NCBI GenBank assembly: GCA_964399675.1
Contig: CAYNRK010000006.1
Location: 1,886-65,885, forward strand
DNA length: 64,000 nucleotides
Direction of reading: 5' to 3'
DNA from: an uncultured Gammaproteobacteria bacterium
GTDB lineage: Bacteria; Patescibacteriota; Patescibacteriia; UBA9934; GWF2-40-263
A program made the position numbers and the translations under genes. Of this stretch, positions 1,295 to 35,994 are shown piece by piece. Numbering within the stretch: the stretch's first letter is position 1; every line of letters begins with the position of its first letter. The notes below the pieces were generated by a model, which had not been told where the DNA came from, did not search any database, and was given only the letters and a program-made list of their open reading frames with translations.

Positions 1295-1386
1295 TGTCAT
1301 CTCGACTAAGCGAGCAAAGCGAGCGCACGGAGAGATCTCGCATATTCGAGATCCCTCGGCTCGGCTTTGCCTCGCTCGGGATGACA
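1295..1386. repeat. Family-A palindromic intergenic repeat, copy 1 (about 92 bp, ends TGTCATCTCGAC ... TCGCTCGGGATGACA)
   Basis: It shares ends and a central GAGATCT/AGATCTC core with the copies at 34254-34348 and 35904-35994. It lies between ftsI and murF. Confidence 0.6.
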
Positions 1387-1409
1387 CAATGATACGGTAT
1401 TACAATTTA

Positions 1410-3182
1410 TTATTCTAAATTTCTTACTGGAGGAATCTCAAAGTACTGTAGCAGAAATTCGGCCAAATCCCCAAACAATGGAGCGGCCGTAGATTCTGCC
1501 CATATAACATCTTTTGGATTATCAATTCTTACAATCATTGCAAACTTTGGATTTTCAACAGGACCAAATCCGACAAATGAACCAATTGTGTAATCCTCGC
1601 TATACCCTATTCCGTCTTTTTTCGGCACCTGCGCGGTTCCTGTTTTCCCTGCAATATAATATCCATCAACACCTGCCCGACGCCCATGCCCGCGTTCAAT
1701 CACAGAAACCAACATGGCACCTAACAGACGAGAAGTTTTTGAATCAATAACTTGGGCAATGTCTTTGGAAGAAGTTTTCTCAATTGTTCCATCAGAATGA
1801 CGAACCTCCTCAACAATGTATGGACGTTTAAGCACGCCCCCATTGGCAATCGCGGCAAAGGCTGAAACTATTTGAATTGGTGTTGTTGTGATCCCTTGTC
1901 CAAATGTAGCTGTGGCTGAATAAATCTCTGATTCATTTTCAAGAGAAGAAACATCTCCGGTAAGTTCTTTTTCAAGTTCTATCTCAGTTTTTTTTCCAAA
2001 TCCAAATTTGGAAACATATTCTTTAAACACATCTGTACCCATTTGTCGCATTGAAAAAATCATCCCTGTATTAATTGATTCTTCCAAAACCTTTGTCATA
2101 TCAACCAACCCATAAGATTTACCTTCTGCGTTTCCCAAAGGCTTTGGCCAACCATCAACCATAACGGATCCGGTGTCTTTAAACTGTGTTGTTGGAGTTA
2201 CTGCTTCAACATCAAGCGCAGCTGCCATGGTTATTGGTTTAAAAATTGAACCAGGCTCATAAGCATCAAAAATAGCCGGATTGTTAAATGAATTGATATC
2301 ATCGATTTCAAAATAAGTATTTGGATCAAAATCAGGCGCACCGCACATGGCTAAAATTTTTCCAGAATGCGGTTCCATAATAATGACAGATCCGGAATCC
2401 GCACCGTGTTTTTTAACGGATTTTTCAAGTGTTGAGCAGGCTTTGTATTGAATAGTGCGATCAAGAGTCAATACCAAATCAACACCATCAACAGCAGGTT
2501 CAATAGACCGCTCAGCAACAGCAATAAGTCGCCCGGCAATGTCGCGCTCAGATTGAATAAATCCTGTTGTGCCGGCAAGAAGTTTGTTGAAATATCCCTC
2601 AAGCCCATATTTCCCGGACTTGGAACCATCTTCATTTGAACCCAAAAAACCAATCACATGTCCGCTCATAAAAGGTTCGGGATAGATGCGAGTTTCCTCT
2701 CGAACATAATTTATACCGGGCAAATCTAATTCCAGAAGTTTTGCAAGCAATTCATCTGAGACTTCTCGTTCAATAGGTTCATAAGGATCGTCCTTTTGAT
2801 CTAAACGTTTTTCAAGCGCCTCGATCTTGTCAATATCATAATCAAAAATCTCAGCAAGTGCCTCTGCAGTGTCATCTGCTCGATCAATGTGTCGCGGATC
2901 AGCGTAAACAAAAGCGAGACGCTGGTTGGTTGCAATTGGAACCAACTTTTCGTCTTTAAGATCGTGAATGTAAATGCTGCCGCGTTCAGGATTTAATTCT
3001 TGAAAAATCTCATGTTGTCCGCTTGCAACAGCTTCATAAAAACCATGATCAATTACTTGTAAAATAATTAAACGAATTCCAATTGCACACGCAAACAAAA
3101 GTACGCATATTCGAAATGCTTCAATGCGCCAATCATTTGATTTCGATTGTTTTTTCTTCCAGCTCGGTTCTCTTTTACTCAT
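1410..3182 (-). CDS. ftsI: Peptidoglycan D,D-transpeptidase (FtsI/PBP2-type penicillin-binding protein)
   Basis: It has an N-terminal TM segment and the motifs SIFKP (SxxK), SIN-like and KTGTA. It is 590 aa and sits in a dcw-type position upstream of murF. Confidence 0.8.
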
Positions 3183-4392
3183 ACAAAATATCTAACCCAA
3201 ATCCAAAGAGTGATCCCCTTCCAGTAGGACTTCTCCCGGCAAGCACTTCCTCACCATCTGAAATTCCATCCCCATCTGTATCTGGATTGTTTGGATTAGA
3301 CCTATAAAAAATTTCTAAAATGTCTGTAAGCCCATCTCCATCCGCATCAAAATTTGCCTCAACTTTTTGTACTGGCAAACGCACATTAACTGAAGATATT
3401 ATATTTTGATTTAAACGAGATACGGAAGATTGTGTTAAAGCTTCCGGTAGGTTTGCTAAAATCGTTGCTAAAATATCTTTGAATTTAATAGGTTGTTCTG
3501 GTTTCTTAACAGTGACTGATTTATTAAATTCAGAAAGCTCAACTTTGATATCAATTGGAACAAGATCAGATGATGCTTCTGTTGTAAAAGCACCTGCTGC
3601 TTGAACGCGATACAATAAATGGTCCTCAACACCGATCCACAATCTCATTGTTAACCGTTCCAATTGTGCAGCACGACGATTTACAAAAAGACGTTCAGCA
3701 TCTGTTGGCTCTCTACCTTCTTTTGCTCGAACCAGATCTAACAAAAACGACTGTAATGCTTCTTTATCAAATCGCGCATCCAAAATTCTTACTTTCTTTT
3801 CATCTATTGTTTCTGTTAGACCATCAAACGTAACTAAGAAAATGTCAGCGAATCTTAAAACATAACGAAAACGTTCGATTGCTTTTGGCGTCCAAACAGA
3901 TGTTGATGTTGATGCTTCCATTGGTAAATCAATCCCTGGTAGGATTGATCCCCAGGATCTAAGCTCGCCTGGCTCAAAAACAATCCAGGTTTCTTCTTTT
4001 TCAAATTCCACTCCAGAAATTTCCGGTGCTGGTGCACGATAGGTTAGATAAATCTTTTGGTCTTTTGAACGAATCTCGCCGGAAAGGTCTGTAAAGTTTT
4101 CAGTTCTTGTTAAATGCTTAGCATCAAATGTTGTTTTATGCTCAATCTTGGTTAGATCAGAAATGTAAACATCTGATGTTGTGAAAACGGTTGTAATATC
4201 CCGAACAGCATCTCCTTGACGCGTCCAACCAAACAAAGATTCCTGATGAAAACTTTCAAGCTCAGACATGGCAATCAACATTTTCTTCATCTCCACTTCC
4301 GGATGAAATTCAGAAAACACAACCCAAGATGCAAATGTTACAGATAACACCACTGCCACGCCAATTAAAATAAAAATAAGGCTTTTATGCAT
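3175..4392 (-). CDS. Hypothetical membrane-anchored protein with a C-terminal DxDxDG (thrombospondin-3-like Ca-binding) repeat region
   Basis: I chose the start at ATG 4392 ([17 protein letters not shown]). The ORF-track N-terminal extension to 4482 is encoded by MITE copy 1. The C-terminus reads DADGDGLTD...[12 protein letters not shown]. Confidence 0.5.
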
Positions 4393-4544
4393 GAGACCGT
4401 TGAAATACTCCAGTGCGAGGTCAAAGTGAGGAATTTTTTTCAGAGATCGTTTCAGGATGACGAGGCGATATGGACATATCATTGAGGAATCATAAAACGA
4501 TCTCTGGGAAAAATAACCGCTTTGGAGCCGTGCTGGAGTATTTC
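4393..4544. mobile_element. Family-C MITE-like element, copy 1 (about 152 bp, 21-bp TIR GAGACCGTTGAAATACTCCAG, nested inner 12-bp inverted repeat)
   Basis: It is near-identical to 15517-15677. The terminal inverted repeats and an internal CAGAGATCGTTT...AAACGATCTCTG palindrome are visible. Confidence 0.65.
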
Positions 4545-4587
4545 AACGGTCTCCATAGCCCTATTTTACCTTTTTGTATCGATTTCG

Positions 4588-5040
4588 TTAAATTTCTGAA
4601 ATATCATCTTCTGAGAGAATTTTTCCAAAATACACACCAGCCTCTCCGGTATTCTCATTGCTTATCAAACGCAATGTTTGACCGTCTTTTGATTGATAGT
4701 CTGTAAACAAATAACGATCATCCTCTTCTGTTTCTGAATCGCCTTCAATTGCAGTTACGTTACCTGCATCCTCGTAATTAAATTCGAATTCCTTTCCCTG
4801 ATACAAAATCACATCAGATGGTTCAACCTCGTCGTGAACGCGATCAAAAAGGATAAGTTCCTCGGTATCAGGCGCAACAGAAAGAAGTCCTTCATTATCA
4901 TTGTAAAGCCAAAATATTTTTGTTCCATCATCAAGCGTTACTTCTGCACGGCCCATGTATTGGAACGGTTGATTTAAAACGCTGACTGATTCGCCAAGCT
5001 CTGTTAAAAGAAGTTGTGAAATATTCATAAATTGAATCAC
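4588..5040 (-). CDS. Hypothetical acidic protein (150 aa)
   Basis: It is a clean ORF with host-like AT-rich composition. I recognise no motif. Confidence 0.4.
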   Translation of the reverse strand: MIQFMNISQLLLTELGESVSVLNQPFQYMGRAEVTLDDGTKIFWLYNDNEGLLSVAPDTEELILFDRVHDEVEPSDVILYQGKEFEFNYEDAGNVTAIEGDSETEEDDRYLFTDYQSKDGQTLRLISNENTGEAGVYFGKILSEDDISEI

Positions 5041-5209
5041 CGGAGAAATTCCTCCTTAGTTTTGTATTCTTCGCCGATTATACTCACAAGTTGAAAATAA
5101 GTAAATCCTGTTTTCCCCAAATTTTTTTATTTTCAAATATGTGTAATTTTTTGACTATTTTTAGCCAAAACCACTTATCCTTCCGAAGCTCCAAAGGAGC
5201 GAAGGAGGG

Positions 5210-5238
5210 TTGACAAAAGTGCATTTTTGTGGTATCAT
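5210..5238 (+). promoter_or_regulatory. Sigma70-type promoter TTGACA-17-TATCAT for cassette 1
   Basis: TTGACA is at 5210-5215, the spacer is exactly 17 nt, and TATCAT is at 5233-5238. Confidence 0.5.
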
Positions 5239-5281
5239 TTTGCGTCATCCTGATTTCGATTGGGATACGCTCTGGGCCTTG

Positions 5282-5362
5282 GTCGAGCTCAACTCGACCT
5301 TGTAGCCCACTTTCCAACCGGGTCTTGTCGAGCTCAGCTCGACTCAGTGCCCCTTTCCAACA
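5282..5362 (+). promoter_or_regulatory. Two tandem copies of a hairpin-forming leader unit (GTCGAGCTCARCTCGAC + GCCCmCTTTCCAAC) in the 5' UTR of cassette 1
   Basis: Units are at 5282-5319 and 5327-5364. Each begins with a near-perfect palindrome and the second is followed by the SD AGGAGG at 5362-5367. Confidence 0.45.
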
Positions 5363-5372
5363 GGAGGAGACC

Positions 5373-6170
5373 ATGGGTCTTCGAACCAACGAGCGACTGG
5401 ATGACCTATGCACCACCGGGAGCTTGCTCTGGGAGCACGTCAAGGATCCGAGAGAGCCCGGACGAGACGGCCTGCTCAAGCGCGCGTTCCGTGTCGCGGA
5501 GTACAGGAACGTCGTGATCGAGCTGCCGGCCGGCGCCGTCGTCGAGCTGGTTGACACCGAGTTCGAGGGTGCCGGCACCTACTTCCACACCGAGGTCTTC
5601 GGAGTCAATCTGCACTTCCGGGACGGGCTCAAGCCCACGGCTGGTGAAGTCGTGATCTGCGACGTCCAGATCTACCTCGAGACCTGGGAGCCGGACTGGA
5701 GCGAGTTGAGCGAGGCCGAGCGGCGCAGGAGGCGTGGCTATCGGAACTACAAGTTCAAGCTCAACGCGACCCCGTGTGCCAAGTCGGACGCCCAGGCAAG
5801 GATGCGCTTGCACATCCGTGACGTGAACGCGGATGGCTACACGCGCATGCACAAGGACATCACAGGGGACGGAGAGCGCTTCGCGCACATGTCCCCGGAC
5901 TGGAAGCCGGACGGCTCCAAGCCCTGGGCCAGGAACCAGGACCTCCAGCTCCTGCAGATCCGGACCAAGGCCGGCAAGGGCGGTGGCAGTGGCAAGGCCG
6001 ACAAACCGGAGACCAAGGCCGGCAAGGGCAAGGGCAACGGCAAGGACAAGCCGCCGCAGAGGACCGAAGCCCAGGTCGTGCGTGAGGTCGACGGCGAGGC
6101 CAGGACGTCCATGCGCGACCTCTTGCGCAACGTCGTCCTTCCCACCACGACCACCCCCTCGGGCTCCTGA
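5373..6170 (+). CDS. Hypothetical protein, strongly GC-rich foreign gene (266 aa, Lys/Gly-rich C-terminal tail)
   Basis: ATG at 5373 lies 5 nt after AGGAGG. GC is about 65% by eye against an AT-rich host, with GC3-rich codons. The antisense ORFs here are high-GC artifacts. Confidence 0.6.
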   Translation: MGLRTNERLDDLCTTGSLLWEHVKDPREPGRDGLLKRAFRVAEYRNVVIELPAGAVVELVDTEFEGAGTYFHTEVFGVNLHFRDGLKPTAGEVVICDVQIYLETWEPDWSELSEAERRRRRGYRNYKFKLNATPCAKSDAQARMRLHIRDVNADGYTRMHKDITGDGERFAHMSPDWKPDGSKPWARNQDLQLLQIRTKAGKGGGSGKADKPETKAGKGKGNGKDKPPQRTEAQVVREVDGEARTSMRDLLRNVVLPTTTTPSGS

Positions 6171-6198
6171 GCCGCAAGGCTCTTCCCGCAAGGGATCT

Positions 6199-6247
6199 GA
6201 CGCCGCCAGCAACTCTCGCTGGCGGCGTCTTAATTTTCAAAAATTTT
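6199..6247 (+). terminator. Intrinsic terminator of cassette 1
   Basis: A perfect 12-bp stem GACGCCGCCAGC-aactctc-GCTGGCGGCGTC is followed by TTAATTTTCAAAAATTTT. Confidence 0.6.
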
Positions 6248-6252
6248 CCATC

Positions 6253-6445
6253 AACCTCCGACGAACCCCCAGGCCACCACCAACAGGTACGTTGTATAAT
6301 TTCGCCAGCACGAGCGAAGCGAGTCTGCCGAAATTATACAACGTGACTGTCCCCCATAATTCTCTACGAAGTCTGCCCGCAGCTCAGCTGCGGGCAGACT
6401 TTTCTAACCCCCCCCTTAATCCCCCCTTGAAAAGGGGGGAACTTC
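6253..6445. repeat. Family-B leader-like repeat, copy 1 (orphaned): CCTCCGACGAAC..., a long perfect hairpin ACGTTGTATAATTTCG/CGAAATTATACAACGT, and a G/C-rich distal hairpin
   Basis: It aligns with 44600-44775 and 48171-48400. On the minus strand it reads extended -10 (TTGTATAAT), hairpin, then GGAGG. Confidence 0.6.
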
Positions 6446-6447
6446 GA

Positions 6448-6975
6448 TTAAATCTTATACAAATACAAATTTGGTGAACCTTTGATCTCGTCAACTTTTA
6501 CAGAATCCCATTCAGGAATTGGCCAAACATAACTTACAACTTTGGTGCCCGGCTTTAACTCCTTTTCCAACTTTGGTTTAATTTTTTTGTAAGTTTCAGG
6601 CATTAAAAAAAGATAGACTGCTGTGTAGTCAGAAAGATCATGAGCAAATGCATTTGATAAAACTATTCTTACTTGACTATGTTTTCCAAAAAAATTCTGA
6701 AACTTTCCAATTAAAACTTGCAAAATGGAAAGCTCCACTCCGGTCGAAGCTGCGCCTGTATTTTTTGAAAGATGCCTGCAAACCCTGCCGTTTCCGCAAC
6801 CTAACTCAACAAACCGATCGTCTTTATTAAGTTCTAACAAATTCTCAATACGTTTTAAATCACGTTTCCACGTTGGCACCCATGGCGCTCCTGAAATCCC
6901 AGCGTATGCTGCTGAGATAAGTAGAATCATGAATATAACAAAAAGAAAAGTCCACATAATAAACAAGAATAACAC
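6448..6975 (-). CDS. Class I SAM-dependent methyltransferase with an N-terminal TM anchor
   Basis: It has the motif I VELGCGNG. It is a paralog of 15696-16238 and both end in LYLYKI. Confidence 0.6.
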   Translation of the reverse strand: MLFLFIMWTFLFVIFMILLISAAYAGISGAPWVPTWKRDLKRIENLLELNKDDRFVELGCGNGRVCRHLSKNTGAASTGVELSILQVLIGKFQNFFGKHSQVRIVLSNAFAHDLSDYTAVYLFLMPETYKKIKPKLEKELKPGTKVVSYVWPIPEWDSVKVDEIKGSPNLYLYKI

Positions 6976-7040
6976 AGGTTCACTTGATCGATAAGATCAT
7001 TTCGTTTATCATCTTTATCATTAAACTTAAAAATAAAATC

Positions 7041-7778
7041 ATGAAACCTTTTTTGATATTACAACTAAGACCTGAAAACCCAACATCTGATAATGAATTT
7101 GAGGCAATTGTAAATTTTAGCGGCCTTGATGAATCAGAAACTCATAGAATTAGAATGGAACAAGGTGGTCTGCCAGAAATAAATCTTAATGATTATTCTG
7201 GAATCATTGTTGGAGGCGGGCCATGGAACGTAAGCGATGATCAATCAAAAAAATCTAAAGAACAAAAAAACGCAGAAGTTTGGCTTGATAAATTAATTGA
7301 TGAAGTTATTGAAAAAGATTTTCCATTTCTTGGAGCTTGCTATGGATTTGGTGCGCTGGCCATAAAAAATAACGGCGTGGTAAATAAGGAACAATACACT
7401 GAGGAACCTAGTGCTATTGATATTACACTGACAGATGAAGCAAAAAACGACCCTTTGTTGCAAGGGCTTCCTGAAACATTTCGCGCAATGGTTGGTCACA
7501 AAGAATCTTGTCAAAAACTTCCTGAAAATGCTGTCTGGCTTGCCAGGGCTGAGGCATGTCCTTATGAAATGTTTCGTATTGGAAAAAATATTTACGCAAC
7601 GCAGTTCCATCCTGAACTAGAAACAGAGGGTTTTTGTCTTCGTGTTGAAATTTATAAAAATGCTGGCTATTTTCCACCAGAGGATGCTGAAAAATTAAAA
7701 GAAGAAGCAAGAAAAGAAAACATCATTGTGCCAATGATGCTATTAAAAAAGTTTATTGATACTTATCGATCTGAATAA
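7041..7778 (+). CDS. Class I glutamine amidotransferase-like protein
   Basis: The start is ATG at 7041 (MKPFLIL). It has the GATase1 nucleophile elbow GACYGFGA and a His later (FHPE). Confidence 0.55.
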   Translation: MKPFLILQLRPENPTSDNEFEAIVNFSGLDESETHRIRMEQGGLPEINLNDYSGIIVGGGPWNVSDDQSKKSKEQKNAEVWLDKLIDEVIEKDFPFLGACYGFGALAIKNNGVVNKEQYTEEPSAIDITLTDEAKNDPLLQGLPETFRAMVGHKESCQKLPENAVWLARAEACPYEMFRIGKNIYATQFHPELETEGFCLRVEIYKNAGYFPPEDAEKLKEEARKENIIVPMMLLKKFIDTYRSE

Positions 7779-8179
7779 TTAGAAATAAATCTAAAACAAG
7801 TTCCAATACAAATTGCTATAAGCAAAGAAATAATTGCTCTGACAACAAAAAATCTTACACTAAAATAATCTGCCTCAATAAAAAATCTTGCAGGGCCAAT
7901 AAGAGTCTGACCTGTAATAAACGCAGCAATTATACTCAATGGCATGCCTTTTTTATTAAGGTCTCTTAAAAGCGGAAGGTAAGCTAAAATTGGTCCAGGT
8001 GTTGCAACCCCAACAGCAGAAGCTTCAACAATGTTCTTTTCGTTTTCAACAAAAATTGCCTTTATCTTTTTTCTTGGCAAATAAACGCTAATAATTTGTG
8101 AAACAATAATCGCAATAATAACAACTGGCAAAATGTCAATGAAATTTTCTATTGCAGTTTTAAACAATTCAAAAATCAT
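7763..8179 (-). CDS. Putative permease, C-terminal half (polytopic membrane protein)
   Basis: It is a 138-aa hydrophobic ORF translationally coupled to 8176-8589. Confidence 0.4.
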   Translation of the reverse strand: MIFELFKTAIENFIDILPVVIIAIIVSQIISVYLPRKKIKAIFVENEKNIVEASAVGVATPGPILAYLPLLRDLNKKGMPLSIIAAFITGQTLIGPARFFIEADYFSVRFFVVRAIISLLIAICIGTCFRFISNYSDR

Positions 8180-8589
8180 AAAAACATTTCAAGTAAGAAA
8201 CCACCAAGGGTTATGAAAATCACACTAAGAATCATTCTGGTGCTGTAAAATTTAATTCCAAAATATTTAATTTCCGCAATATCTCTAATAACAGACTCGC
8301 TAATTGTTTCTCCTGCAATCAATGCAAAAACAACTCCAAAAGAAGCCCCCTTTAAAAACAAAGCGTATGCAATTGGATATGTAACATATCTTGGAATTGG
8401 AAGAACTACTCCCAAAAACGCTGCTATTGGAATTGCAATCCAAACACTATTTCCAAGCAATATGTTCAAAGAACCTTCAGGTAAATATATTTCGATAATT
8501 GCCCCAGCAAAAACTGCAACAAAAAATATGGGCAAAATAAAACCCAATTCTTTTATGGACCCTGTTGCAATTGCTTTGACTTTACTCAT
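8176..8589 (-). CDS. Putative permease, N-terminal half (polytopic membrane protein)
   Basis: It is hydrophobic throughout (137 aa). It overlaps the next ORF by 4 nt (ATGA), which suggests a two-part permease or a split gene. Confidence 0.4.
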   Translation of the reverse strand: MSKVKAIATGSIKELGFILPIFFVAVFAGAIIEIYLPEGSLNILLGNSVWIAIPIAAFLGVVLPIPRYVTYPIAYALFLKGASFGVVFALIAGETISESVIRDIAEIKYFGIKFYSTRMILSVIFITLGGFLLEMFL

Positions 8590-8607
8590 TAAACCATTAT
8601 ATCAAAT

Positions 8608-9615: not shown

Positions 9616-9680
9616 AGTGTAGCAAAAAACAAGCTTAAATTAAATCCACAACCACAATCTAATCTTACATACCAAATCAC

Positions 9681-9706
9681 ATTTAAGTGACGGCCGTAAC
9701 TTAAAT
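9681..9706. promoter_or_regulatory. 26-bp near-perfect palindrome ATTTAAGTGACGGCCGTAACTTAAAT about 70 bp upstream of the Nudix-CobO gene
   Basis: It has dyad symmetry and sits in the promoter region. This is a candidate operator. Confidence 0.3.
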
Positions 9707-9890
9707 GAAACTTTTAAAATTTTTTAAATTCAAAATACTCTCCCTTCCATAAACGGTTGGGAGATTTTTGTTGAGTTTTGAAATCCGTGGGCCTGGCGTA
9801 GTGCGTTGTACGGGACCATACGTAATACCTGTGGAGTAAACACAGAAAATAAGATACGCTGGTGATGACATTTTTTAATAATCACAGCGT

Positions 9891-10280
9891 ATGACAATAG
9901 CAATAGATGTTTCAATATTAGAATTATTTCTACCAAAAGGAACCATGGACTGGTTCGATATTGTAGAAAGTAAAAACACAGACAATGAAGTCTGTATTAT
10001 TTTAGAAGAAAAAAATATACCACCGCTTTTACCAGAACAGAAAGATAAAAAAATAACCTCAAAAGGTTTTTACAGCATCACCATTACAGACTTTCCAATA
10101 AGAGGAAAAAGGACGTCGCTCACATTTAGGCGTAGAAGATGGAGGGTTGAAGGCCAACAAGAACTTCTCAAACGAGACATTCAGCTCTGTGCTCCGGGAA
10201 CACAGCTTGAAAAAGAATTTGCTTCTTTTTTAAAAGAACAAAGCGGAGAAGTCCGCCATCTCTTTGACGAGTATTGCTGA
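9891..10280 (+). CDS. IS transposase, N-terminal part (orfA)
   Basis: It is a 129-aa ORF. The downstream ORF overlaps it by 17 nt in the +1 frame. Confidence 0.5.
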   Translation: MTIAIDVSILELFLPKGTMDWFDIVESKNTDNEVCIILEEKNIPPLLPEQKDKKITSKGFYSITITDFPIRGKRTSLTFRRRRWRVEGQQELLKRDIQLCAPGTQLEKEFASFLKEQSGEVRHLFDEYC

Positions 10281-11247
10281 GTGGTGCTGTTTGGAAGCTA
10301 AACTCTTCGAACGTCAGTACAAAGACCACCTGAGTAATTACAAAACATGGAACCAGAAGTCACATGCTGACAAATGGCTACTCTTTGAACAAAACATCAG
10401 CTCACATTTAAGTCTGGATGAGGTGTCCATCTCAAACGGGGAGCTGTATACAATACTCACCAACAAAGCAGCCAAAGGAGGTAAAGGGTCTTTGGTTGTT
10501 ATATGCAAAGGAACCAAAACAGAAGATATTGTTAAGGTTTTTAAACGTATTCCATCAATTGAAAGGCAAAGAGTTCTTGAAGTCACCTTAGACTTCTGTC
10601 CAAGTATGGAAAAGTCTGTAAGGCATGCTTTCCCTAATGCCCGAGTTACAAGCGACCGTTTTCATGTTCAAAAGATTGTTACAGAAGCATTGCAGGATAT
10701 GCGCATTGAACTTCGACATAAAGCACTGAAATCTGAAAACAGAGAAGTTGAAAAAGCACGAAAGAAGTGTAAGAAACAAGGTAAGCAATACAAACAACCT
10801 AAGCTAAAAACATACTCAAACGGAGATACAAAGAAACAACTTTTAGCCAGAAGCAGATATCTTCTTTTCAAACCAAAGAGTAAATGGACAGACAACCAAA
10901 AAGAAAGGGCTGTTATTTTGTTTGAAACATTTCCTGAATTAGAAAGTGCTTACAATCTTTCAATGATGTTTAGGAACGTATATGAACAAGCTAAAACAAA
11001 AAAAGAAGCCAAACGGCTACTTTCAAACTGGTACAGCAAGGTTGAAAAAAAAGACTTCCCACATTTCATCACTACTGCCGAATACATTCAAAACCATGAA
11101 GAGACAATCCTTAACTATTTTCCAAACAGATCTACCAATGCTTCTGCTGAATCTTTCAATGCAAAGCTTAAAGGTTTCAGAGCACTGGTCAGAGGGGTAA
11201 GAGACAAGAAGTTTTTTCTTTATAGGGTTTCTAAGATTTGGGGGTAG
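10264..11247 (+). CDS. IS transposase, DDE catalytic part (ISL3-like, orfB); the transposase is frameshifted and possibly inactive
   Basis: It reads DEVSISNGELYTIL...VTSDRFHVQKIV...NASAESFNAKLK, which resembles the DDE_Tnp_ISL3 pattern. ISL3 transposases are normally one ORF. Confidence 0.55.
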   Translation: MTSIAEWCCLEAKLFERQYKDHLSNYKTWNQKSHADKWLLFEQNISSHLSLDEVSISNGELYTILTNKAAKGGKGSLVVICKGTKTEDIVKVFKRIPSIERQRVLEVTLDFCPSMEKSVRHAFPNARVTSDRFHVQKIVTEALQDMRIELRHKALKSENREVEKARKKCKKQGKQYKQPKLKTYSNGDTKKQLLARSRYLLFKPKSKWTDNQKERAVILFETFPELESAYNLSMMFRNVYEQAKTKKEAKRLLSNWYSKVEKKDFPHFITTAEYIQNHEETILNYFPNRSTNASAESFNAKLKGFRALVRGVRDKKFFLYRVSKIWG

Positions 11248-11396
11248 TCCACAGGAATTGCGTATGATCCGTTGTACGGTTTATCACCCAGTACAATAGG
11301 GGTGCAAATCCCCTCAGGTCCACGGATTTCAGAATTTGACTTAAGCTAAAATTTATGTCACTCTTTTTTTGGTTGATAAGCCGTACAAACACTATT

Positions 11397-11432: not shown

Positions 11433-11459
11433 GTTATTTGATATCGACTTAATTTTTCT

Positions 11460-15503: not shown

Positions 15504-15516
15504 AACCACAATATTA

Positions 15517-15677
15517 GAGACTGTTGGAATACTCCAGTGCGAGATCAAAGTGAGAAATTTTTTTCAGAAATAGTTTCAGGACGACGAGACGATATGGACA
15601 TATCGTTGAGGAATCATGAAACTATTTCTGGGAAAAATAGCCGCTTTGGAGCCGTGCTGGAGTATTTCAACGGTCTC
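15517..15677. mobile_element. Family-C MITE-like element, copy 2
   Basis: It is near-identical to 4393-4544, including the TIRs GAGACTGTTGGAATACTCCAG / CTGGAGTATTTCAACGGTCTC. Confidence 0.65.
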
Positions 15678-15695
15678 TAGTATAACATAGGATTT

Positions 15696-25697: not shown

Positions 25698-25699
25698 TC

Positions 25700-26519: not shown

Positions 26520-26558
26520 CTACCAGCGTATCTGATATTTCTATATGCTGCAACTATT

Positions 26559-28356: not shown

Positions 28357-28423
28357 ACCGCATAGGATACCGATTATGAAAACCCTTGTCGAGCTTACCT
28401 AAGTATGCGTACAATATCGCCAT

Positions 28424-29755: not shown

Positions 29756-29773
29756 TCTTACTGCGCTTTCAGT

Positions 29774-30856
29774 CTATAACTCAACAAAGCTATTGTCTCC
29801 TAAAATGAGTCGATGGCCGGTTTTTGGATGACTCCGACGGTAATCAACCAATGAAGCGTTGAGCCCAATAAGACTATTAACTATCCGACGTGTTGTATCA
29901 ATAGTTGCGCCATCAAAAACAATGGAATGTTCAACTTCTGTGTGTGTGATTGTGACGTTGTTTCCAATGGCTGAGTAAGGGCCAATATAACTTGAAGTTA
30001 CAACACAATTCTCTCCAATTACAACCGGACCGCGAATAAGTGTGTCCGGACTTATTGTTGAACCTTTCCCAATGCTTACCAAACCTTGAACTTGCGCATT
30101 CTCTGGCACATTGCAATCAACACAAAAATCTTCACGACTCAGATCATCCATGATAAGTGCGTTCCCTTCAATCAGAGCGTCCGGTGTTCCAGTATCTTTC
30201 CACCAACCTGTAATCTCTTCATGTCCGGTTTTTCCATTTCGAATATACCAAGTGATAATATCAGTGATCTCGTACTCACCTCGTCCTGAGGGCTGTAATG
30301 TTTTAAAAGCTTCAAAAAACTTTTCATCAAATAAATAAATACCTGTTACAGCATACGGTGATGGGGGGTCTTTTGGTTTTTCAACAGTGCGTCTGAGTGT
30401 TCCGTCGTTATCAAACTCAGCAACTCCAAATCTTTGAGGGTCTTTTACATGGGACAGTGCAATCATGCAATCAAGATCCTCATTTTGAAATCGGTCAACA
30501 AATCGATTAATACTTCCGAGAATTATATTATCTCCCAAGAAAAACAAAAATCTTTCTCCTCGCAAATGTTCTTCAGCGTTTGCTACAACGTGTGCCAGAC
30601 CTTTGGCACCGCCGCGTTGTTCAACATATTTAATTTGAGCTCCAAATTCAGATCCGTTTCCAAACGCCTCGTACATCATTTCAATCTCACCTGGATTCAC
30701 ATTGATAATAAGATCTTTGATTCCAGCATTTGTAATTTTCTTAATGACATACCAAAGCATTGGCTTATTTGCCATTGGAATCAGGTGCTTGTTTCTAGTC
30801 CATGTGATGGGGCGAAGTCTTGTTGCATGCCCACCTGCTGCAATAAGTGCTTTCAT
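29774..30856 (-). CDS. rmlA: Glucose-1-phosphate thymidylyltransferase, long form (nucleotidyltransferase + left-handed beta-helix)
   Basis: It reads MKALIAAGGHATRLRPIT...KHLIP (the sugar-nucleotidyl transferase signature). It is 360 aa with C-terminal hexapeptide-like repeats. Confidence 0.7.
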   Translation of the reverse strand: MKALIAAGGHATRLRPITWTRNKHLIPMANKPMLWYVIKKITNAGIKDLIINVNPGEIEMMYEAFGNGSEFGAQIKYVEQRGGAKGLAHVVANAEEHLRGERFLFFLGDNIILGSINRFVDRFQNEDLDCMIALSHVKDPQRFGVAEFDNDGTLRRTVEKPKDPPSPYAVTGIYLFDEKFFEAFKTLQPSGRGEYEITDIITWYIRNGKTGHEEITGWWKDTGTPDALIEGNALIMDDLSREDFCVDCNVPENAQVQGLVSIGKGSTISPDTLIRGPVVIGENCVVTSSYIGPYSAIGNNVTITHTEVEHSIVFDGATIDTTRRIVNSLIGLNASLVDYRRSHPKTGHRLILGDNSFVEL

Positions 30857-30952
30857 AAAATATAAGTCAAAATTACATTGGCCACTTTACGCCTTTGAAA
30901 AACAAGCGTCAATAAGTTGCTTGACGAACTTTGGGGTTCATAAAAAGACACC

Positions 30953-30981
30953 TTGACGCAATCAAGAAAATAAATTACTCT
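30953..30981 (+). promoter_or_regulatory. Candidate promoter TTGACG-17-TACTCT for cassette 4
   Basis: The -35 is near-consensus and the spacer is 17 nt. A second TTGACG lies at 30921. Confidence 0.3.
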
Positions 30982-31019
30982 TCTTTTCTGACGGACTGGC
31001 TGTCACCACGGAGGAACTC

Positions 31020-31634
31020 ATGACTGTCTGGATCTCGCTCGAAGAAGCAAGAAAAAGGCTTGGCGATGACGTTGTCATCTGCCTGGAGCCCGAAGGAGTG
31101 CCTGACATCGAGGATGAAGGGAGACCTGAAAGAAAGAGCCTGGCTGACAAGCTTCCTGGGCTCTGGGTGTTCGATCCGAGAACGGGTCGGATCCAGCGCG
31201 GAGACGGCAAGTTCCACGCAGCCGGAGTGGTCAAGCACCCGGGCGGCTGGAACCTGGCCGCGGTCATCGAGGAGCCGAGCGTGGAACCGCCCGAAGAGGG
31301 TCCACACGTAGTCGGTCACGTGATCGTGGAGGTCAACCCGCGTGGGTTCGTGCGCAGACGGCTGGGCAAAGGCCTCAGCGGCGCGATCCACGAGCTCATG
31401 CCAAGCTCGATCAGCAAGGGCGAAGGTGCTGGTGAGGAGGAAGAACCGGTCGGCTACTTCGAGGCCAACTGCCAGCGCATCTGCGGCTCGATCGCGGTGT
31501 ATCTGCGTGAGGTCGACTTCCCGGACGACGAAGGCATGACTCCGGAGAGGTTCCGGAAGTGCTCCGAGGACGGACGTTCGCTCAGCGCGCTCGCAGTCGC
31601 TGGTCTGCTGCACGGGAGCCCTGTCACGGGCTAG
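31020..31634 (+). CDS. Hypothetical protein (204 aa), GC-rich cassette 4
   Basis: ATG lies 5 nt after GGAGGA. Codons are GC3-rich (about 65% GC by eye). The antisense 221-aa ORF is a GC artifact. Confidence 0.55.
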   Translation: MTVWISLEEARKRLGDDVVICLEPEGVPDIEDEGRPERKSLADKLPGLWVFDPRTGRIQRGDGKFHAAGVVKHPGGWNLAAVIEEPSVEPPEEGPHVVGHVIVEVNPRGFVRRRLGKGLSGAIHELMPSSISKGEGAGEEEEPVGYFEANCQRICGSIAVYLREVDFPDDEGMTPERFRKCSEDGRSLSALAVAGLLHGSPVTG

Positions 31635-31663
31635 AAACACTCGACACTCAACATCTCTCTCCT

Positions 31664-31691
31664 ACGGGCTTCCCCAGCCCGTTTTCATTTT
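31664..31691 (+). terminator. Intrinsic terminator of cassette 4
   Basis: ACGGGC-ttcccca-GCCCGT is followed by TTTCATTTT. Confidence 0.5.
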
Positions 31692-31815
31692 GAAAATTGA
31701 ACCAGGTGCATAAGCATCAAAAATAACTGTCACCAAATAGATCCATAATTTACATTACAAAAGAAGCTGGCGAGCAAAGAATTCTGTGCACAAACAAAAA
31801 CAACCCTTTCGGAAC

Positions 31816-31837
31816 AATCCTAACGATCGTTAGGATT
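31816..31837. promoter_or_regulatory. Perfect 22-bp palindrome AATCCTAACGATCGTTAGGATT abutting the stop codon of the wHTH/Cas2-like gene
   Basis: It is exactly self-complementary. A near-identical copy lies at the gene's start (32365-32386). Confidence 0.6.
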
Positions 31838-31838
31838 G

Positions 31839-32357
31839 TTAGAGAATTTTTCCCTCCACCACCTTCGCCCATTCTCCAATTCCAATCTCATCAAGGAGCT
31901 GCCTCATCTCATCGGTAACAGCCTTTCTTGTTCCCCAAATACTTTTTTGAATTTGTACAAAACCAGCTTTCTTTAAATATTTACGAAAAAGATCACGAGT
32001 TTTTCGAACATCTTCTGGAATGTCAAAGATGATCAGACAGTATTCATCATCAAAGAGTTCGTTTTGTTCTAAAAGAATTCTGTCTTTCAATGACTGTACT
32101 AGACCCTTTTTTGTTAATTGAAACTCAATACGGTCGCCTTTTTCTAGTATTTCAATTAGACCCCTTTCAATGAGTTGATACTCAAGCTCGAGATGATTTA
32201 TCTTCGCTTTTCTTTTCCTATAAAAATCAAATTCCCGAGCCATTGCTCTGACACCAGTACCTGAACACGGGTAGGAATAAGGATGCGATTTTTCCAATCT
32301 TTGTATTCTGTTAGTCAACTTTTGAAGTTGATATCGAGTATTTGGAATTTTAGACAT
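31839..32357 (-). CDS. Putative transcriptional regulator: N-terminal winged-helix-like region plus a C-terminal Cas2/VapD-like domain (paralog of 49589-50134)
   Basis: The ATG start is at 32357 (MSKIPNT). The C-terminal pattern YCLIIFDIPEDVRKTRDLFRKYLKKAGFVQIQKSIWGT resembles the Cas2 beta1-alpha1 core. Its composition is AT-rich like the host. Cognate palindromes lie at both ends. Confidence 0.45.
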   Translation of the reverse strand: MSKIPNTRYQLQKLTNRIQRLEKSHPYSYPCSGTGVRAMAREFDFYRKRKAKINHLELEYQLIERGLIEILEKGDRIEFQLTKKGLVQSLKDRILLEQNELFDDEYCLIIFDIPEDVRKTRDLFRKYLKKAGFVQIQKSIWGTRKAVTDEMRQLLDEIGIGEWAKVVEGKIL

Positions 32358-32364
32358 AAGCAAA

Positions 32365-32386
32365 AATCCTAACGATCGTTATGATT
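32365..32386. promoter_or_regulatory. Second copy of the 22-bp palindrome (AATCCTAACGATCGTTATGATT), 8 bp upstream of the regulator start codon
   Basis: It differs by one base from 31816-31837. It overlaps the expected RBS/promoter and is a likely autoregulatory operator. Confidence 0.55.
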
Positions 32387-32530
32387 TCTCTGAAACAGTG
32401 TGGGAAGAGCTAAACGAAAAACTCCCCACCACTACTAATGGAAGGGAGTATTTATTATAATTACATATTAGCAATTTTTTTTGAATCTGTCAATGTGTAT
32501 GACAACTAATTTTCATAAAAAAACAAAATT

Positions 32531-32567
32531 CAGATAACAAGAAAACCACCAGGACAATACCTTGGTG
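32531..32567 (-). terminator. Intrinsic terminator of cassette 5 (minus strand)
   Basis: The stem CCACCAAGG/CCTGGTGG is followed by TTTTCTTGTT on the minus strand. Confidence 0.45.
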
Positions 32568-32581
32568 GCCGTACGTCTTGC

Positions 32582-33307
32582 TCAGACGAGCAAGGACATG
32601 ACTGCGCGCATGTGACCGCTGAGAAAGCCAGCTGCCCTTGCTTCGCGCAGGACACTGCGAGTGATCCAGGCGAAGTTCTCGGGCTGACCGGTCTTTTTGA
32701 CTTCTTGGTTGACCAGACCCTCATCAGCCACACGAATGTGTCCGTACTTGTTGACCTTTTCGAAGTGTCGACCCCCGTCTTCGACTGCGTCCTCCCAGGC
32801 AATATGCGACGCCCATCCCACCTTCTGTGGAGATAGAACCAGGTCAGCAAACGGAACAGGCTTGATGGGCCGACCTCCACGATCCAGCTCCCCTTGCAGT
32901 GCCTTGCGATGATGATCCAGATTGGATTGTGAGAACTGCACTGGTGGGGCAACAAGGACTCGTGTGTTGCGACCTTGGGGCACTTCGATTCCAATGTTGC
33001 CTGGCTCAGCAAGCATGCGCACAAGGATCCTGTTGGGCTCGTGCACGATCAAGGCAACGAACCCCTTTCCAACCGTGAAAAGCATGGGCTGCTTCCAGCT
33101 CGCAACCTCTCGACCGGCCGCACCGGCGATCCTTACACCACGCACGCTGTAGAAGCGTCCATCAGGACGCATGAGCCCGGCGTCGGAAACCTTCCAGTCT
33201 GGCCTGAGCCACGAAATGGAGCATTCTTCCGACGCCATTGCCAGCGCATCCGCACGCTTATGAGCGAAAGTGAAAAAAGACGGCATATTGGTAAAGGTCT
33301 TAACCAT
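32582..33307 (-). CDS. Hypothetical protein (241 aa), GC-rich cassette 5
   Basis: ATG at 33307 lies 8 nt after AAGGAGA. GC is about 62% by eye. It is inserted within the dTDP-sugar gene cluster. Confidence 0.55.
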   Translation of the reverse strand: MVKTFTNMPSFFTFAHKRADALAMASEECSISWLRPDWKVSDAGLMRPDGRFYSVRGVRIAGAAGREVASWKQPMLFTVGKGFVALIVHEPNRILVRMLAEPGNIGIEVPQGRNTRVLVAPPVQFSQSNLDHHRKALQGELDRGGRPIKPVPFADLVLSPQKVGWASHIAWEDAVEDGGRHFEKVNKYGHIRVADEGLVNQEVKKTGQPENFAWITRSVLREARAAGFLSGHMRAVMSLLV

Positions 33308-33333
33308 GATCACTGTCTCCTTGCTGAAAAGAA

Positions 33334-33362
33334 AAATTAGCAGTCTTTATCAAAATTGTCAA
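33334..33362 (-). promoter_or_regulatory. Promoter TTGACA-17-TAATTT (minus strand) for cassette 5
   Basis: The reverse complement of 33357-33362 is TTGACA. The spacer is 17 nt and the -10 TAATTT is identical to the -10 at 23491. Confidence 0.5.
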
Positions 33363-33363
33363 T

Positions 33364-33391
33364 CAAAAAAGAGCCGTTCGGCTCTTTTTTA
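33364..33391. terminator. Bidirectional intrinsic terminator after rmlD
   Basis: AAAAAAGAGCCGTTCGGCTCTTTTTT. Confidence 0.6.
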
Positions 33392-33401
33392 TTTATTTAT
33401 T

Positions 33402-34259
33402 TTATTCTCCCCTTTTTGCTTTTGCGTACTTTTCTAATGTGTCTCTTAATGCCTCTTGTACAGATCTCATTGCTATTCCAAATTCTCCCAATCGCGTGCT
33501 TTTCAAAAAGTTGTTTGACCGTCCTTTCTTTGCCAACCCTTGTTTTACTAAATCATCATTTGAAATCCATTCACACGAATGATTCTGATCCACTAATTCC
33601 TTATACAATCCAAGCAGCTCTCTGTGTCTCATGGTTCCTGGATTAGTAACATGGAAAATTCCTTCGGCTCGTTTGCTAAGAAGCTGATAAAAAACATCAA
33701 CCATATCATCAACAATTGAAACTGAATTTTCAACATCAATTACTTTTTCAAAACCCGCGAGCTTATCAATCAAATTTCCTGAAGATGGCTTCCAATCTAT
33801 TGGCATACGAATTCGTCCGATCCCAACATTAGGAAGTGTTGAAAGAACCAAGTCAGCTGCAAACTTTGCTCGTGAATAAACAGGACGCGGGTTTCCAAAA
33901 TCATCCTCGCGCCATGCATTATCTTCGTGCGGCGAGTGTCCATAAAAAATACATCCGGAACCAATGTGCAGCAAATACTTCCCTGTCTCTGCACACGCTT
34001 GCGCAAGCATAATAGGAAGCACAGTGTTTCCTTCAATCGTTTCCAGTTGATGATCTTCACACCAGTCCACGTTTGGTTTTCCTTTTACACCAGCCGCATT
34101 AAAAACAACATCCGGCTGCGTTCTGTTAATTTCATCAATTGCGTCCTGCACGCTCTTTACGTTCACGGGCGAAATAAAAGCTTCATCCCCCCAAGCCTCC
34201 TTACAACGATTACCAATGTAACCGTTTCCAAAAATCAAAATTTTCATAGTTTTTGTCAT
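33402..34259 (-). CDS. rmlD: dTDP-4-dehydrorhamnose reductase-like NAD(P)-dependent reductase
   Basis: The start is ATG at 34259 (MTKTMKILIFG) or 34247. It has an N-terminal Rossmann fold and the YSRAK (YxxxK) motif. It is adjacent to rmlB. The ORF-track N-terminal extension reads through repeat A2. Confidence 0.6.
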   Translation of the reverse strand: MTKTMKILIFGNGYIGNRCKEAWGDEAFISPVNVKSVQDAIDEINRTQPDVVFNAAGVKGKPNVDWCEDHQLETIEGNTVLPIMLAQACAETGKYLLHIGSGCIFYGHSPHEDNAWREDDFGNPRPVYSRAKFAADLVLSTLPNVGIGRIRMPIDWKPSSGNLIDKLAGFEKVIDVENSVSIVDDMVDVFYQLLSKRAEGIFHVTNPGTMRHRELLGLYKELVDQNHSCEWISNDDLVKQGLAKKGRSNNFLKSTRLGEFGIAMRSVQEALRDTLEKYAKAKRGE

Positions 34260-34348
34260 TTCGAGCGAGCTAGGTGAGCCGAGAAATCTCGCATTCCAGA
34301 TCTCTCCGCTCCCCACGATCCTTCGGATCGGGGTCGGTCGAGATGACA
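34254..34348. repeat. Family-A palindromic repeat, copy 2 (fills the rmlB-stop/rmlD-start gap exactly)
   Basis: The ends are TGTCATTTCGAGCGA ... TCGGTCGAGATGACA. Confidence 0.6.
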
Positions 34349-34353
34349 TGCTG

Positions 34354-35358
34354 TTATCTTAAATTATATTGCTGTTTGTAATAATCTTTATAAGCACCTG
34401 AACGGCATCTATCAATCCACTCTTGATTGTCTTTTAACCATTGCACTGTTTGACCCAATCCTTCATCAAAATTTACTTTTGGTTCCCAGCCAAGTTCTGT
34501 TCTTAACTTCTGACTGTTTAATGCATATCGTCGATCATGCCCGGCCCGATCTTTTACATATTCAATATGAGATTCATCTCGTCCTGTAAGTCCAATCATC
34601 TTTCTTACAATATCCAGGTTTGGCACGCGATACCCTGTTCCAATGTTATAAGCTTCGCCAAGGTTGCCTTTTTGCGCAATCAAGTCAATTGCCCTGCAAT
34701 GATCTTCTGTAAAAATCCATTCACGGATTTGCATTCCATCTCCATAAACAGGAACGATTTTACCATTAAATAAATTGGATGTAAACAATGGGATCAGCTT
34801 TTCAGGAAATTGATATGGGCCATAAAAATTAACAGAGTGAGTGATAATAACCGGAGTTCCATAAGTTATTGCATAAGCGTGGCACATATGATCAGCCGCA
34901 GCTTTTGAAGCCGAGTATGGGCTTCTTGGCTCAAATGGCGAACCCTCTTCTGACTCCCCTTCCATAACAGCGCCATAAACTTCGTCTGTTGAAATGTGAA
35001 CCATACGAGGAATGTTGTGTTTGCGAACACCCTCAAGCAATGTGTAAACGCCATAGATATTTGTATCAACAAATGCACGAGGTTCTAAAATTGATCGATC
35101 AACATGAGTCTCAGCAGCATAGTTGATAATCAGATCAACGCCTTTTGATAAAACCTGGTCCACATCATTTTCGTTTGCAATATCACCTTTTACAAATTGA
35201 TAACGCTTGTCGTTTTCAATCTCTTTGAGATTTTCAAGATTTCCAGCGTAAGTTAGTTTGTCAAAGTTAACAACTTCAACATCGTCATATTTTTTTAACA
35301 AATAGTGGATCATGTTTGTTCCCATGAATCCAGCTCCTCCGGTGATCAATATTTTCAT
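34354..35358 (-). CDS. rmlB: dTDP-glucose 4,6-dehydratase
   Basis: It reads MKILITGGAGFMGTN..., has the YSASKAAADH catalytic YxxxK and is 334 aa. Confidence 0.8.
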   Translation of the reverse strand: MKILITGGAGFMGTNMIHYLLKKYDDVEVVNFDKLTYAGNLENLKEIENDKRYQFVKGDIANENDVDQVLSKGVDLIINYAAETHVDRSILEPRAFVDTNIYGVYTLLEGVRKHNIPRMVHISTDEVYGAVMEGESEEGSPFEPRSPYSASKAAADHMCHAYAITYGTPVIITHSVNFYGPYQFPEKLIPLFTSNLFNGKIVPVYGDGMQIREWIFTEDHCRAIDLIAQKGNLGEAYNIGTGYRVPNLDIVRKMIGLTGRDESHIEYVKDRAGHDRRYALNSQKLRTELGWEPKVNFDEGLGQTVQWLKDNQEWIDRCRSGAYKDYYKQQYNLR

Positions 35359-35894
35359 ATGTTCAAATGTTTTTTAACCAAATACCAGGATGAGATCACT
35401 GTTCCGTCCCAAATATCTCCACTCTGAATTGCTTCATCGATTTGTTCTGCTGTCATTTCAATAATATCTATCTCTTCATTGTCTTCTAATTTTTGTTTTG
35501 CTGGCTCAAGATCTGTTGCCAAATAAACTATTCCCCGTTCTTTTGAAATAGATGGAGCTGATGCTTTCCACCCGATTCTAACGATTTTATTTGGCTTATA
35601 CCCAGCCTCTTCAATGCACTCTCTTACAAATGCCTCATCTGGAGTTTCGTCTTTTTCAATCCCACCAGCTGGAATAGCAACAGAAATCTTGTCAAACAAA
35701 TATCTATATTCTTTAAGCATTATAAAGTTGCCGTTTTCTTTTTGAAGAAAACCTTCAACATACTCTGTGCCGTATGCATTTGCATGATAGTAATATGTTC
35801 GTTTCTGACCATCAACCTCATAATCATCAACTAAAAATCGTATGTGATCGTTTTCAATCACTGGTTCTGTTTTAATTGTTTTCCATTTTTTCAT
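35355..35894 (-). CDS. NUDIX hydrolase (ADP-sugar/NDP-sugar pyrophosphatase-like)
   Basis: The Nudix box is GGIEKDETPDEAFVRECIEEAGY. The start is ATG at 35894. The earlier ATG at 35909 lies inside repeat A3. Confidence 0.6.
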   Translation of the reverse strand: MKKWKTIKTEPVIENDHIRFLVDDYEVDGQKRTYYYHANAYGTEYVEGFLQKENGNFIMLKEYRYLFDKISVAIPAGGIEKDETPDEAFVRECIEEAGYKPNKIVRIGWKASAPSISKERGIVYLATDLEPAKQKLEDNEEIDIIEMTAEQIDEAIQSGDIWDGTVISSWYLVKKHLNI

Positions 35895-35903
35895 ATTCAC
35901 TTC

Positions 35904-35994
35904 TGTCATCCCGAGCGACCCCGGCGCAGCCGGGGGAGCCGAAGGATCTCGAATTTGAGATTTCTCCGCTCGCTAGTGCTCGGTCGAAATGACA
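35904..35994. repeat. Family-A palindromic repeat, copy 3 (overlaps the last codons of the HIT gene)
   Basis: The ends are TGTCATCCCGAGCGA ... GCTCGGTCGAAATGACA, in reverse-complement orientation relative to copy 1. Confidence 0.6.

Follow-up and report, generated by a model that had tools for sequence, protein, structure and literature searches.

SsnA of Neisseria is a 94-amino-acid (aa), single-domain GIY-YIG nuclease whose site is the repeat NTS (CGTCATTCCCGCGMAVGCGGGAATCYRG) (Chenal et al., 2025; PMC11893778). The hairpin is bound only as single-stranded DNA (ssDNA) and is cut a few nt upstream; three bases 5′ of the palindrome are needed for cutting and a 3′ C for binding, and the enzyme is inactive on the reverse strand, on double-stranded DNA and on RNA. 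The ssn genes are typically flanked by the motif, and in Neisseria the system restricts transforming DNA (PMC11893778). Members of the CGTC-tagged REP superfamily (Di Nocera et al., 2013; PMC3733652) often carry TGTC as the tag, have stems that start with AT and short tails, and occur mostly as inverted dimers, either between unidirectional or convergent open reading frames (ORFs) or as in-frame intragenic copies. Families CGTC-1 to CGTC-4 include dRS3 of Neisseria and RPE-4 and RPE-6 of Rickettsia; no associated enzyme or transposase was found (PMC3733652). Here we analyse three palindromic elements, c1, c2 and c3, in 64 000 nt of contig CAYNRK010000006.1 (assembly GCA_964399675.1, positions 1886–65 885 of the forward strand; hereafter the window), from a genome that FtsI homologues place near Candidatus Uhrbacteria (Patescibacteria, ∼ 70% identity). 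The elements are real inserted repeats; they are a variant within a repeat class already known and do not make up a kind of their own. Each is an inverted pair of TGTC-tagged hairpin units with a tandem G.A internal loop, and each is probably a gene-less form of a repeat associated with Ssn-type nucleases.

All three lie between co-directional genes on the minus strand. Their coordinates and their neighbours (ftsI/murF, rmlB/rmlD and nudix/HIT) are exactly those given in a preliminary description of this DNA. The elements, their units and a fourth dimer are listed below.

1274–1284, plus strand: partial head-like motif TGTCATCTCCA, 10 nt from c1
1295–1386, unstranded: dimer c1, in the gap between the penicillin-binding protein (PBP)/FtsI gene (1410–3182, minus) and the Mur ligase gene (MurF; ATG at 1259, minus)
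1295–1338, plus strand: c1 unit in plus-strand reading, TGTC-ATCTC-GA...GA-GAGAT-CT
1349–1386, minus strand: c1 unit in minus-strand reading, TGTC-ATCCC-GA-GC-GA-GGCAAAGCC-GA-GC(C)-GA-GGGAT-CT
34254–34348, unstranded: dimer c2, in the gap between the RmlB-like (34354–35358) and RmlD-like (33402–34247) genes
34254–34289, plus strand: c2 unit, stem ATTTC/GAAAT
34298–34348, minus strand: c2 unit, stem ATCTC/GAGAT, with the inner hairpin CCCCGATCCGAAGGATCGTGGGG inserted
35904–35994, unstranded: dimer c3, in the gap between the HIT (35973–36389) and NUDIX (35355–35894) genes
35904–35949, plus strand: c3 unit, stem ATCCC/AGGAT, with the inner hairpin CCCCGGCGCAGCCGGGG
35958–35994, minus strand: c3 unit, stem ATTTC/GAAAT
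35973–35975, minus strand: HIT stop codon TAG, within c3
12450–12528 of L213, ∼ 475 nt to the right of the window: fourth dimer, filling a gap of 92 nt that separates a GHL15-domain gene from the co-directional gene that follows

The head-like motif close to c1 may be a relic or a chance match. The elements differ in how tightly they fill their gaps. The dimer c3 encodes the final seven residues of HIT (SVISTEH) plus its TAG stop and ends 9 nt before the NUDIX ATG at 35894. Between c2 and its neighbours there are 5 nt on the side of the RmlB stop and 6 nt on the side of the RmlD ATG (34247). Exact filling, as first described, fails for c1, with spacers of 23 nt towards the FtsI stop and 35 nt towards the MurF ATG. 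The fourth dimer sits 5 nt downstream of a stop codon and 8 nt upstream of the next start. In the window the sequence TGTCATYYCGA occurs six times without a mismatch, always as one of the two ends of c1–c3, against a chance expectation of 0.24; none of 100 shuffles reached six. Chance palindromes are excluded. In an alignment, c1–c3 share ends of 11–15 nt (TGTCATYYCGA(S)CGA / TCG(S)TCGRRATGACA) and a central dyad (GAGRRATCTCG / CGAGATYYCTC), their interiors vary and their mean column identity is 65%. Shared ends and a central dyad had both been noted before; what does not stand is the interpretation of the ends as terminal inverted repeats, since they are the 5′ halves of two separate hairpin units.

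The unit reads 5′-T-GTC-ATYYC-GA-(variable stem-loop)-GA-GRRAT-CT. An unpaired GTC tag precedes a 5-bp stem that starts A-T/T-A, the stem leads through the tandem G.A internal loop into an inner stem-loop of any length, and a C follows directly 3′ of the stem. Each window element consists of two such units (36–51 nt each), inverted, with the tags pointing outward. The YY and RR dinucleotides distinguish pairing within a unit from pairing between the ends of the element. Within units they are complementary in all six cases (CC/GG, TT/AA, CT/AG); end to end, they are mismatched in all three copies.

The same comparison was made for 106 dimers from other genomes, which were parsed with a pattern that does not impose YY:RR pairing. 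Within-unit pairs are of Watson–Crick type in 99 of the 106 left units and 98 of the 106 right units, and complementarity between units is found for only 69 outer and 67 inner pairs. Of the 37 heterodimers, 32 and 34 retain the pairing inside the unit. The GAG of the presumed tandem G.A, likewise not imposed by the pattern, is present in 95 of the 106 dimers, and CGA/GAG is near-invariant. A set of 62 distinct 27-nt units gives a similar picture: 97.9% of cells are paired (84.3% after shuffling), 77 cells carry a double change (21 after shuffling; 0 of 500 shuffles reach this number) and pairing collapses when the partner columns are slid against each other. The inner stem covaries too, with GC, CG and AU pairs. 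G2, T3 and C4 of the 62 units were fixed by the extraction pattern and their invariance in this set is not independent evidence. On the basis of covariation only, the putative conserved structure is the unit fold and not the long hairpin. K-turn and hammerhead were set aside from the unit sequence alone, which has no 3-nt bulge and no CUGA core.

The unit resembles SRM, the published motif of the Ssn system, and NTS in several respects. In SRM/NTS an HGTC tag stands before a palindrome that opens with AT, and TGTC-AT is found in six of six window units; a C stands directly 3′ of the palindrome, and all six window units end ...GRRAT-C-T. Both are directional units that bracket a gene for a ∼ 94-aa single-domain GIY-YIG protein (here in other genomes only), and both exist as hundreds of gene-less copies near or between genes with a wide phylogenetic spread. 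Unlike SRM, the window units have the conserved tandem G.A loop interrupting the stem, sometimes a long inner stem-loop, and the tail CT instead of CC; their host is a Patescibacterium, with no ssn gene in the ∼ 84 kb searched (the window and ∼ 20 kb of same-contig flank, L212/L213). With the CGTC superfamily they share the unpaired CGTC/TGTC tag, a stem starting A-T, T-A, the short 3′ tail, a predominance of inverted dimers with outward tags and variable spacers, a location in unidirectional or convergent gaps, and in-frame intragenic copies (SVISTEH in the window, cf. VIPAKAGI in Di Nocera et al.). CGTC families, in contrast, have uninterrupted stems of 8–9 bp, loops of 4–5 nt and the tail CCA, whereas the window type has 5 bp, G.A/A.G and at least 2 bp, GNA triloops or long inserts, and the tail CTN.

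The link to nuclease genes was found outside the window. A scan with the dimer pattern, using one genome per species, returned at least 120 stretches. In one of these loci (L047, Flavobacteriales), a GIY-YIG gene of 96 aa has the element immediately upstream. In Flavivirga rizhaonensis a homologous gene is bracketed by related units (see also L124). We then scanned metagenome contigs with an alignment of this family of ∼ 95-aa, single-domain GIY-YIG proteins (A2) and kept 80 loci (L129–L208). A tagged unit is found within 400 nt upstream of the gene in 51 of the 80, downstream in 52 and on both sides in 41. Within 100 nt, 40 units on the plus strand were counted upstream and 45 on the minus strand downstream, and the density falls from 5.6 units per kb within 150 nt of the gene to 0.23 per kb beyond 1 kb. 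The geometry of these brackets, with the tags outward, is that of the window dimers, the gene taking the place of the short spacer. The G.A type accounts for 72 of the 130 units near the gene.

Since 10 of the 80 members are flanked by repeats that match SRM/NTS, we operationally treat the GIY-YIG family as the Ssn family. Several of these repeats are near-exact Neisseria NTS. The published SRM string thus matches at 10 of 80 Ssn-family loci and the tagged hairpin is found at 51–52, so that the published motif appears to under-count this system. By sequence, the G.A type is a repeat class of Ssn-family loci that the SRM string misses. The canonical 27-mer fails the string because of the G.A loop, and the window units fail it because of their long inserts as well. 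The family proteins are small (P0001, 96 aa; the protein of L243, 88 aa), and PF01541 spans nearly the whole length of both.

L243 is from an Uhrbacteria relative of the source genome and, among the loci of the candidate phyla radiation (CPR) that were searched with the GIY-YIG profile, was the only one with a gene. Its protein matches the family profile from end to end (E = 1e-19) and PF01541 with E = 5e-12. The gene (region 7400–8050) is flanked by inverted G.A-type hairpins, two upstream and two downstream, ATTGCCT-GA-...-GA-AGGCAGT. At the FtsI/MurF junction of L243 (11768–11841), a TGTC unit harbours a further copy of this gene-flanking hairpin within its loop. The predicted nuclease/hairpin system is present in the Uhrbacteria clade, and we infer its presence in the source genome.

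We regard it as probable that the window elements are gene-less inverted dimers of a G.A-loop, TGTC/CGTC-tagged, Ssn-associated repeat, and that they are predicted sites of an ssDNA nuclease. Two features, a conserved tag that is specific to one strand and the close association with Ssn-type GIY-YIG genes, point, by analogy with SsnA, to recognition as folded single-stranded DNA in preference to a role at the RNA level. The window copies would then be the gene-less form of a nuclease cassette, as REPINs are to REPtrons. The hairpins would form when the DNA is single-stranded, at replication or during DNA uptake, and a cognate Ssn-type nuclease, with its gene in another part of the genome, would bind or nick them. 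As an inverted pair, each element would offer one G.A-type site on whichever strand is exposed. We speculate that new copies arise from nuclease-triggered copying and that hairpins of the operon mRNA are a by-product, which is possible as the elements are transcribed within operons. Patescibacteria depend on DNA uptake, and for this reason a role in ssDNA restriction, if true, would be biologically relevant for them.

Several observations weigh against this interpretation. Isolated unit hairpins are weak (−2.4 to −12.3 kcal/mol, nearest-neighbour DNA parameters) and no better than shuffles, so energy is no argument for the unit structure; the fold predicted to have the lowest energy is the long end-to-end hairpin. 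The published SRM string, HGTCWYN(0-2)YYVSBRHN(0-5)WNVSBRGN(0-2)RNCYNB, has no match in the window. The hairpins beside the GIY-YIG gene of L243 lack the GTC tag and their 5′ flank differs. The associated proteins are candidate members of cd10448, the CDD family of Ssn nucleases, with indirect support from the SRM/NTS-matching repeats at 10 of the 80 loci, but their nearest solved structures are labelled UPF0213 (1zg2, 1ywl). We know of no mechanism for the copying of repeats by a GIY-YIG nuclease. A profile search of all ORFs in the ∼ 84 kb found no GIY-YIG gene, and c1–c3 are only ∼ 65% alike, which argues against a recent burst of copying.

The last two points would also be expected if the elements were decayed remnants, that is, members of the same repeat class whose nuclease has been lost and which persist as neutral leftovers where insertion is tolerated, at gene junctions. 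Their heterogeneous interiors fit this account, and so does the near-identical strain L209 (99.95% identity), which shows no polymorphism at the elements and no change in their presence or absence. However, all six units have kept perfect YY:RR pairing along with the GTC tag, the CGA/GAG loop and the 3′ C despite the divergent interiors, which argues for continued constraint, and the ∼ 84 kb cover only part of the genome. We consider decay possible but clearly less likely than a repeat that is still recognized by its nuclease.

A primary function in RNA, as the preliminary description proposed, is a different proposition. Hairpins in the mRNA could shield upstream cistrons from 3′ exonucleases, give rise to processing sites or decouple translation. 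Each of the four copies has co-directional genes on its two sides and must be transcribed. The RNA of both strands of c1–c3 folds with −45.6 to −51.1 kcal/mol (z of −4.3 to −6.3 against shuffles; the corresponding DNA folds have −22 to −29 kcal/mol), far better than shuffles. Dimers in other genomes also show a preference, with 36 in unidirectional and 27 in convergent gaps and only 7 in divergent ones (background 440/136/105). Yet the conserved features are strand-specific (the GTC tag; G.A and not C.U loops) and nevertheless occur on both strands through the inverted layout, and the orientation with respect to transcription differs, c1 being opposite to c2 and c3. The mRNA strand of c1 has a C.A mismatch and not G.U. 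Rfam has no match, either at the gathering threshold (window and eight loci) or with E ≤ 1 (34150–36100), and the characterized partner family binds no RNA (PMC11893778). A primary RNA function is, in our judgement, improbable.

The repeat predicted to be Ssn-associated is widely distributed. More than 20 phyla are represented among the matches listed, isolates and CPR lineages included. The taxa among these include Acidobacteriota, Gemmatimonadota, Nitrospirota, Chloroflexota, Planctomycetota, Verrucomicrobia, Clostridia, Coriobacteriia, Leptospirales, Rickettsiales, Bdellovibrionota and many Proteobacteria, the Bacteroidota isolates Spirosoma, Flavobacterium, Hymenobacter and Pontibacter, as well as Luteimonas, Reyranella and the CPR lineages Peribacteria and Saccharibacteria. 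Convergent plus/minus unit pairs predominate in these other genomes, with inter-unit spacers of 0 to ∼ 50 nt. A blastn search of PLSDB plasmids gave no real match, and no match to the exact element sequence was found in the literature. The scan of IMG/VR viral contigs returned 28 stretches, none with a GIY-YIG gene; with so few viral stretches and no gene among them, phages are no obvious vector.

Syntenic Patescibacteria relatives (L125 and L128) contain both empty and filled versions of the junctions:

RmlB/RmlD junction: c2 dimer in the window; ATGA overlap and no element in L125; not covered in L128
HIT/NUDIX junction: c3 dimer in the window; no element in L125; ATGA overlap and no element in L128
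NUDIX/RmlB junction: empty in the window (ATATGA overlap); empty in L125 (TTATGA stop/start overlap); solo unit in L128

The solo 27-nt unit of L128 (1350–1376, CGTCATCCCGAGCGAAGCGAGGGATCT) accounts for a clean, in-frame insertion of 30 nt where the C-terminus of NUDIX is encoded: the protein ends ...YLNS-RHPERSEGS-I*, compared with ...HLN-I* in the window, RHPERSEGS having been added by the insertion. At the FtsI/MurF junction, the site of c1, L243 has a solo G.A-type TGTC unit, and L242 has a small, unrelated hairpin. Direct repeats of at least 4 nt flank only 1 of 113 elements, and a search for a target motif found none; the sole signal is a preference for T just outside each end (position −1). 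The reciprocal empty and filled junctions indicate that units and dimers insert independently and without duplication. By sequence comparison, the apparent insertions lie where two genes are translationally coupled, and some of them take the place of stops and C-terminal codons. Such reciprocal sites are clean evidence that a unit can be inserted without duplication, and that in-frame and stop-replacing insertions are possible.

These insertion data bear on two transposase-based explanations. The first is that the elements are REPINs mobilized by a RAYT (Y1 HUH) transposase. The preliminary description had called them REP/BIME-like, which is borne out by paired REP-type hairpins in unidirectional gene gaps and by the further copies. 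Like GTAG REP/BIME/REPIN-RAYT repeats, they are tagged hairpin units that are abundant as inverted doublets, have a unit-flanked gene as the presumed source, show ssDNA-type recognition features and make no target-site duplication. They are unlike them in that the tag is TGTC and not GTAG, the bracketed gene encodes a GIY-YIG and not an HUH/Y1 fold, and the sequence recurs across phyla where GTAG REPs are lineage-specific. No Y1 or IS110 genes are annotated in the window or the ∼ 20 kb flank, and Di Nocera et al. report no Y1 transposase flanked by CGTC-type repeats (PMC3733652). We regard RAYT mobilization as very improbable.

The second, which we give hardly any credence, is that the elements are Correia-like miniature inverted-repeat transposable elements mobilized by a DDE transposase, for example that of the ISL3 copy in the window (transposase gene at 9891–11247). 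With ∼ 92 bp, what look like terminal inverted repeats and intergenic sites, they do resemble Correia elements, which are palindromes of ∼ 100–150 bp that lie in operons and form RNA hairpins, and a likeness to these had been suggested. It does not hold: Correia elements have true terminal inverted repeats of 26 bp and duplicate a TA target, and the window elements show neither feature. The latter have no target-site duplication, covary within units and not between their ends, and belong to a class whose solo 27-nt units insert alone. The ISL3 copy was rejected as mobilizer, its ends (9813–9838 / 11245–11270) being unrelated to TGTCAT. It is an ISL3-family insertion sequence (9813–11270) with a 129-aa ORF, a 327-aa DDE_Tnp_ISL3 ORF and 26-nt imperfect terminal inverted repeats; it is the only transposase in the window and the ∼ 20 kb flank and is unrelated to the palindromes.

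A more general hypothesis, which we put forward as speculative and rather doubtful, is that G.A-loop TGTC hairpins are the main Ssn-associated class across bacteria, for the most part overlooked by the published SRM string, that they are moved in trans by GIY-YIG Ssn nucleases as ∼ 27–30-nt units and dimers, and that in the streamlined genomes of Patescibacteria they survive mainly at ATGA-coupled junctions. If true, this would be a transposition-like mechanism that is based on a GIY-YIG nuclease, makes no target duplication and sometimes rewrites protein C-termini. The assignment preferred here, to a gene-less Ssn-associated repeat, would tie an unexplained repeat of a CPR genome to the recently characterized enzyme–repeat system Ssn/SRM, and it bears on the spread of CGTC-type REPs.

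The elements also affect gene calling, through false N-terminal extensions and altered C-termini. The spurious extensions that had been predicted at element-made start codons are real: ORF 33402–34349 begins at the A/TG of a TGTCAT end and ORF 35355–35909 begins within ATGACA, both N-terminal extensions being artefacts. A public gene call for MurF begins at an ATG in the central loop of c1.

The window also contains at least three solo units of a related subtype:

48295–48322, minus strand: solo unit TGTCATTGCGAGCGAAGCGAAGCAATCT; the subtype also flanks GIY-YIG genes in L149 and L150
48355–48397, minus strand: solo unit CGTC-GTTGC-GA-(CCCCC..GGGG hairpin)-..GCAAT-CT
44719–44776, minus strand: solo unit of the same subtype as the two above, preceded by a partial head CGTCATTGCCCCCTG

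A solo TGTC/CGTC unit stands just upstream of two of the three copies of a second repeat family (6255–6350, 44603–44699 and 48174–48275, minus strand). This family resembles a common 5′ leader: a ∼ 70-nt hairpin, ACAGTCACGTTGTATAATTTCGGCAG...CTGGCGAAATTATACAACGTACCTGT, comes first, then the conserved GTTCGTCGGAGG and then a start codon. It has no Rfam match. A third family (4393–4553 and 15511–15683) consists of nested palindromes of ∼ 160 nt with outer arms of 45–51 nt that are 73–76% complementary.

Between the RmlD gene and an NTP-transferase gene, which overlap directly in L125, the window has ∼ 2.5 kb (30860–33400) that looks like acquired DNA. It contains two GC-rich islands at 31000–31650 (63–70%) and 32550–33250 (52–64%), compared with ∼ 39% for the genome, a 204-aa ORF without Pfam match, a Hexose_dehydrat fragment and a PaaX_M-like ORF. 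At ∼ 32505–32552, ∼ 48 nt adjoining the small palindrome TGTCATACACATTGACA are present in the window and absent from strain L209. A further palindrome with 26-nt arms (ATCGCTACCCGGTAGCGGTTTAAGCC...) lies at 36453–36514, and an AT-rich block at 47007–47158 contains inverted and tandem repeats of the GAAATAG type.

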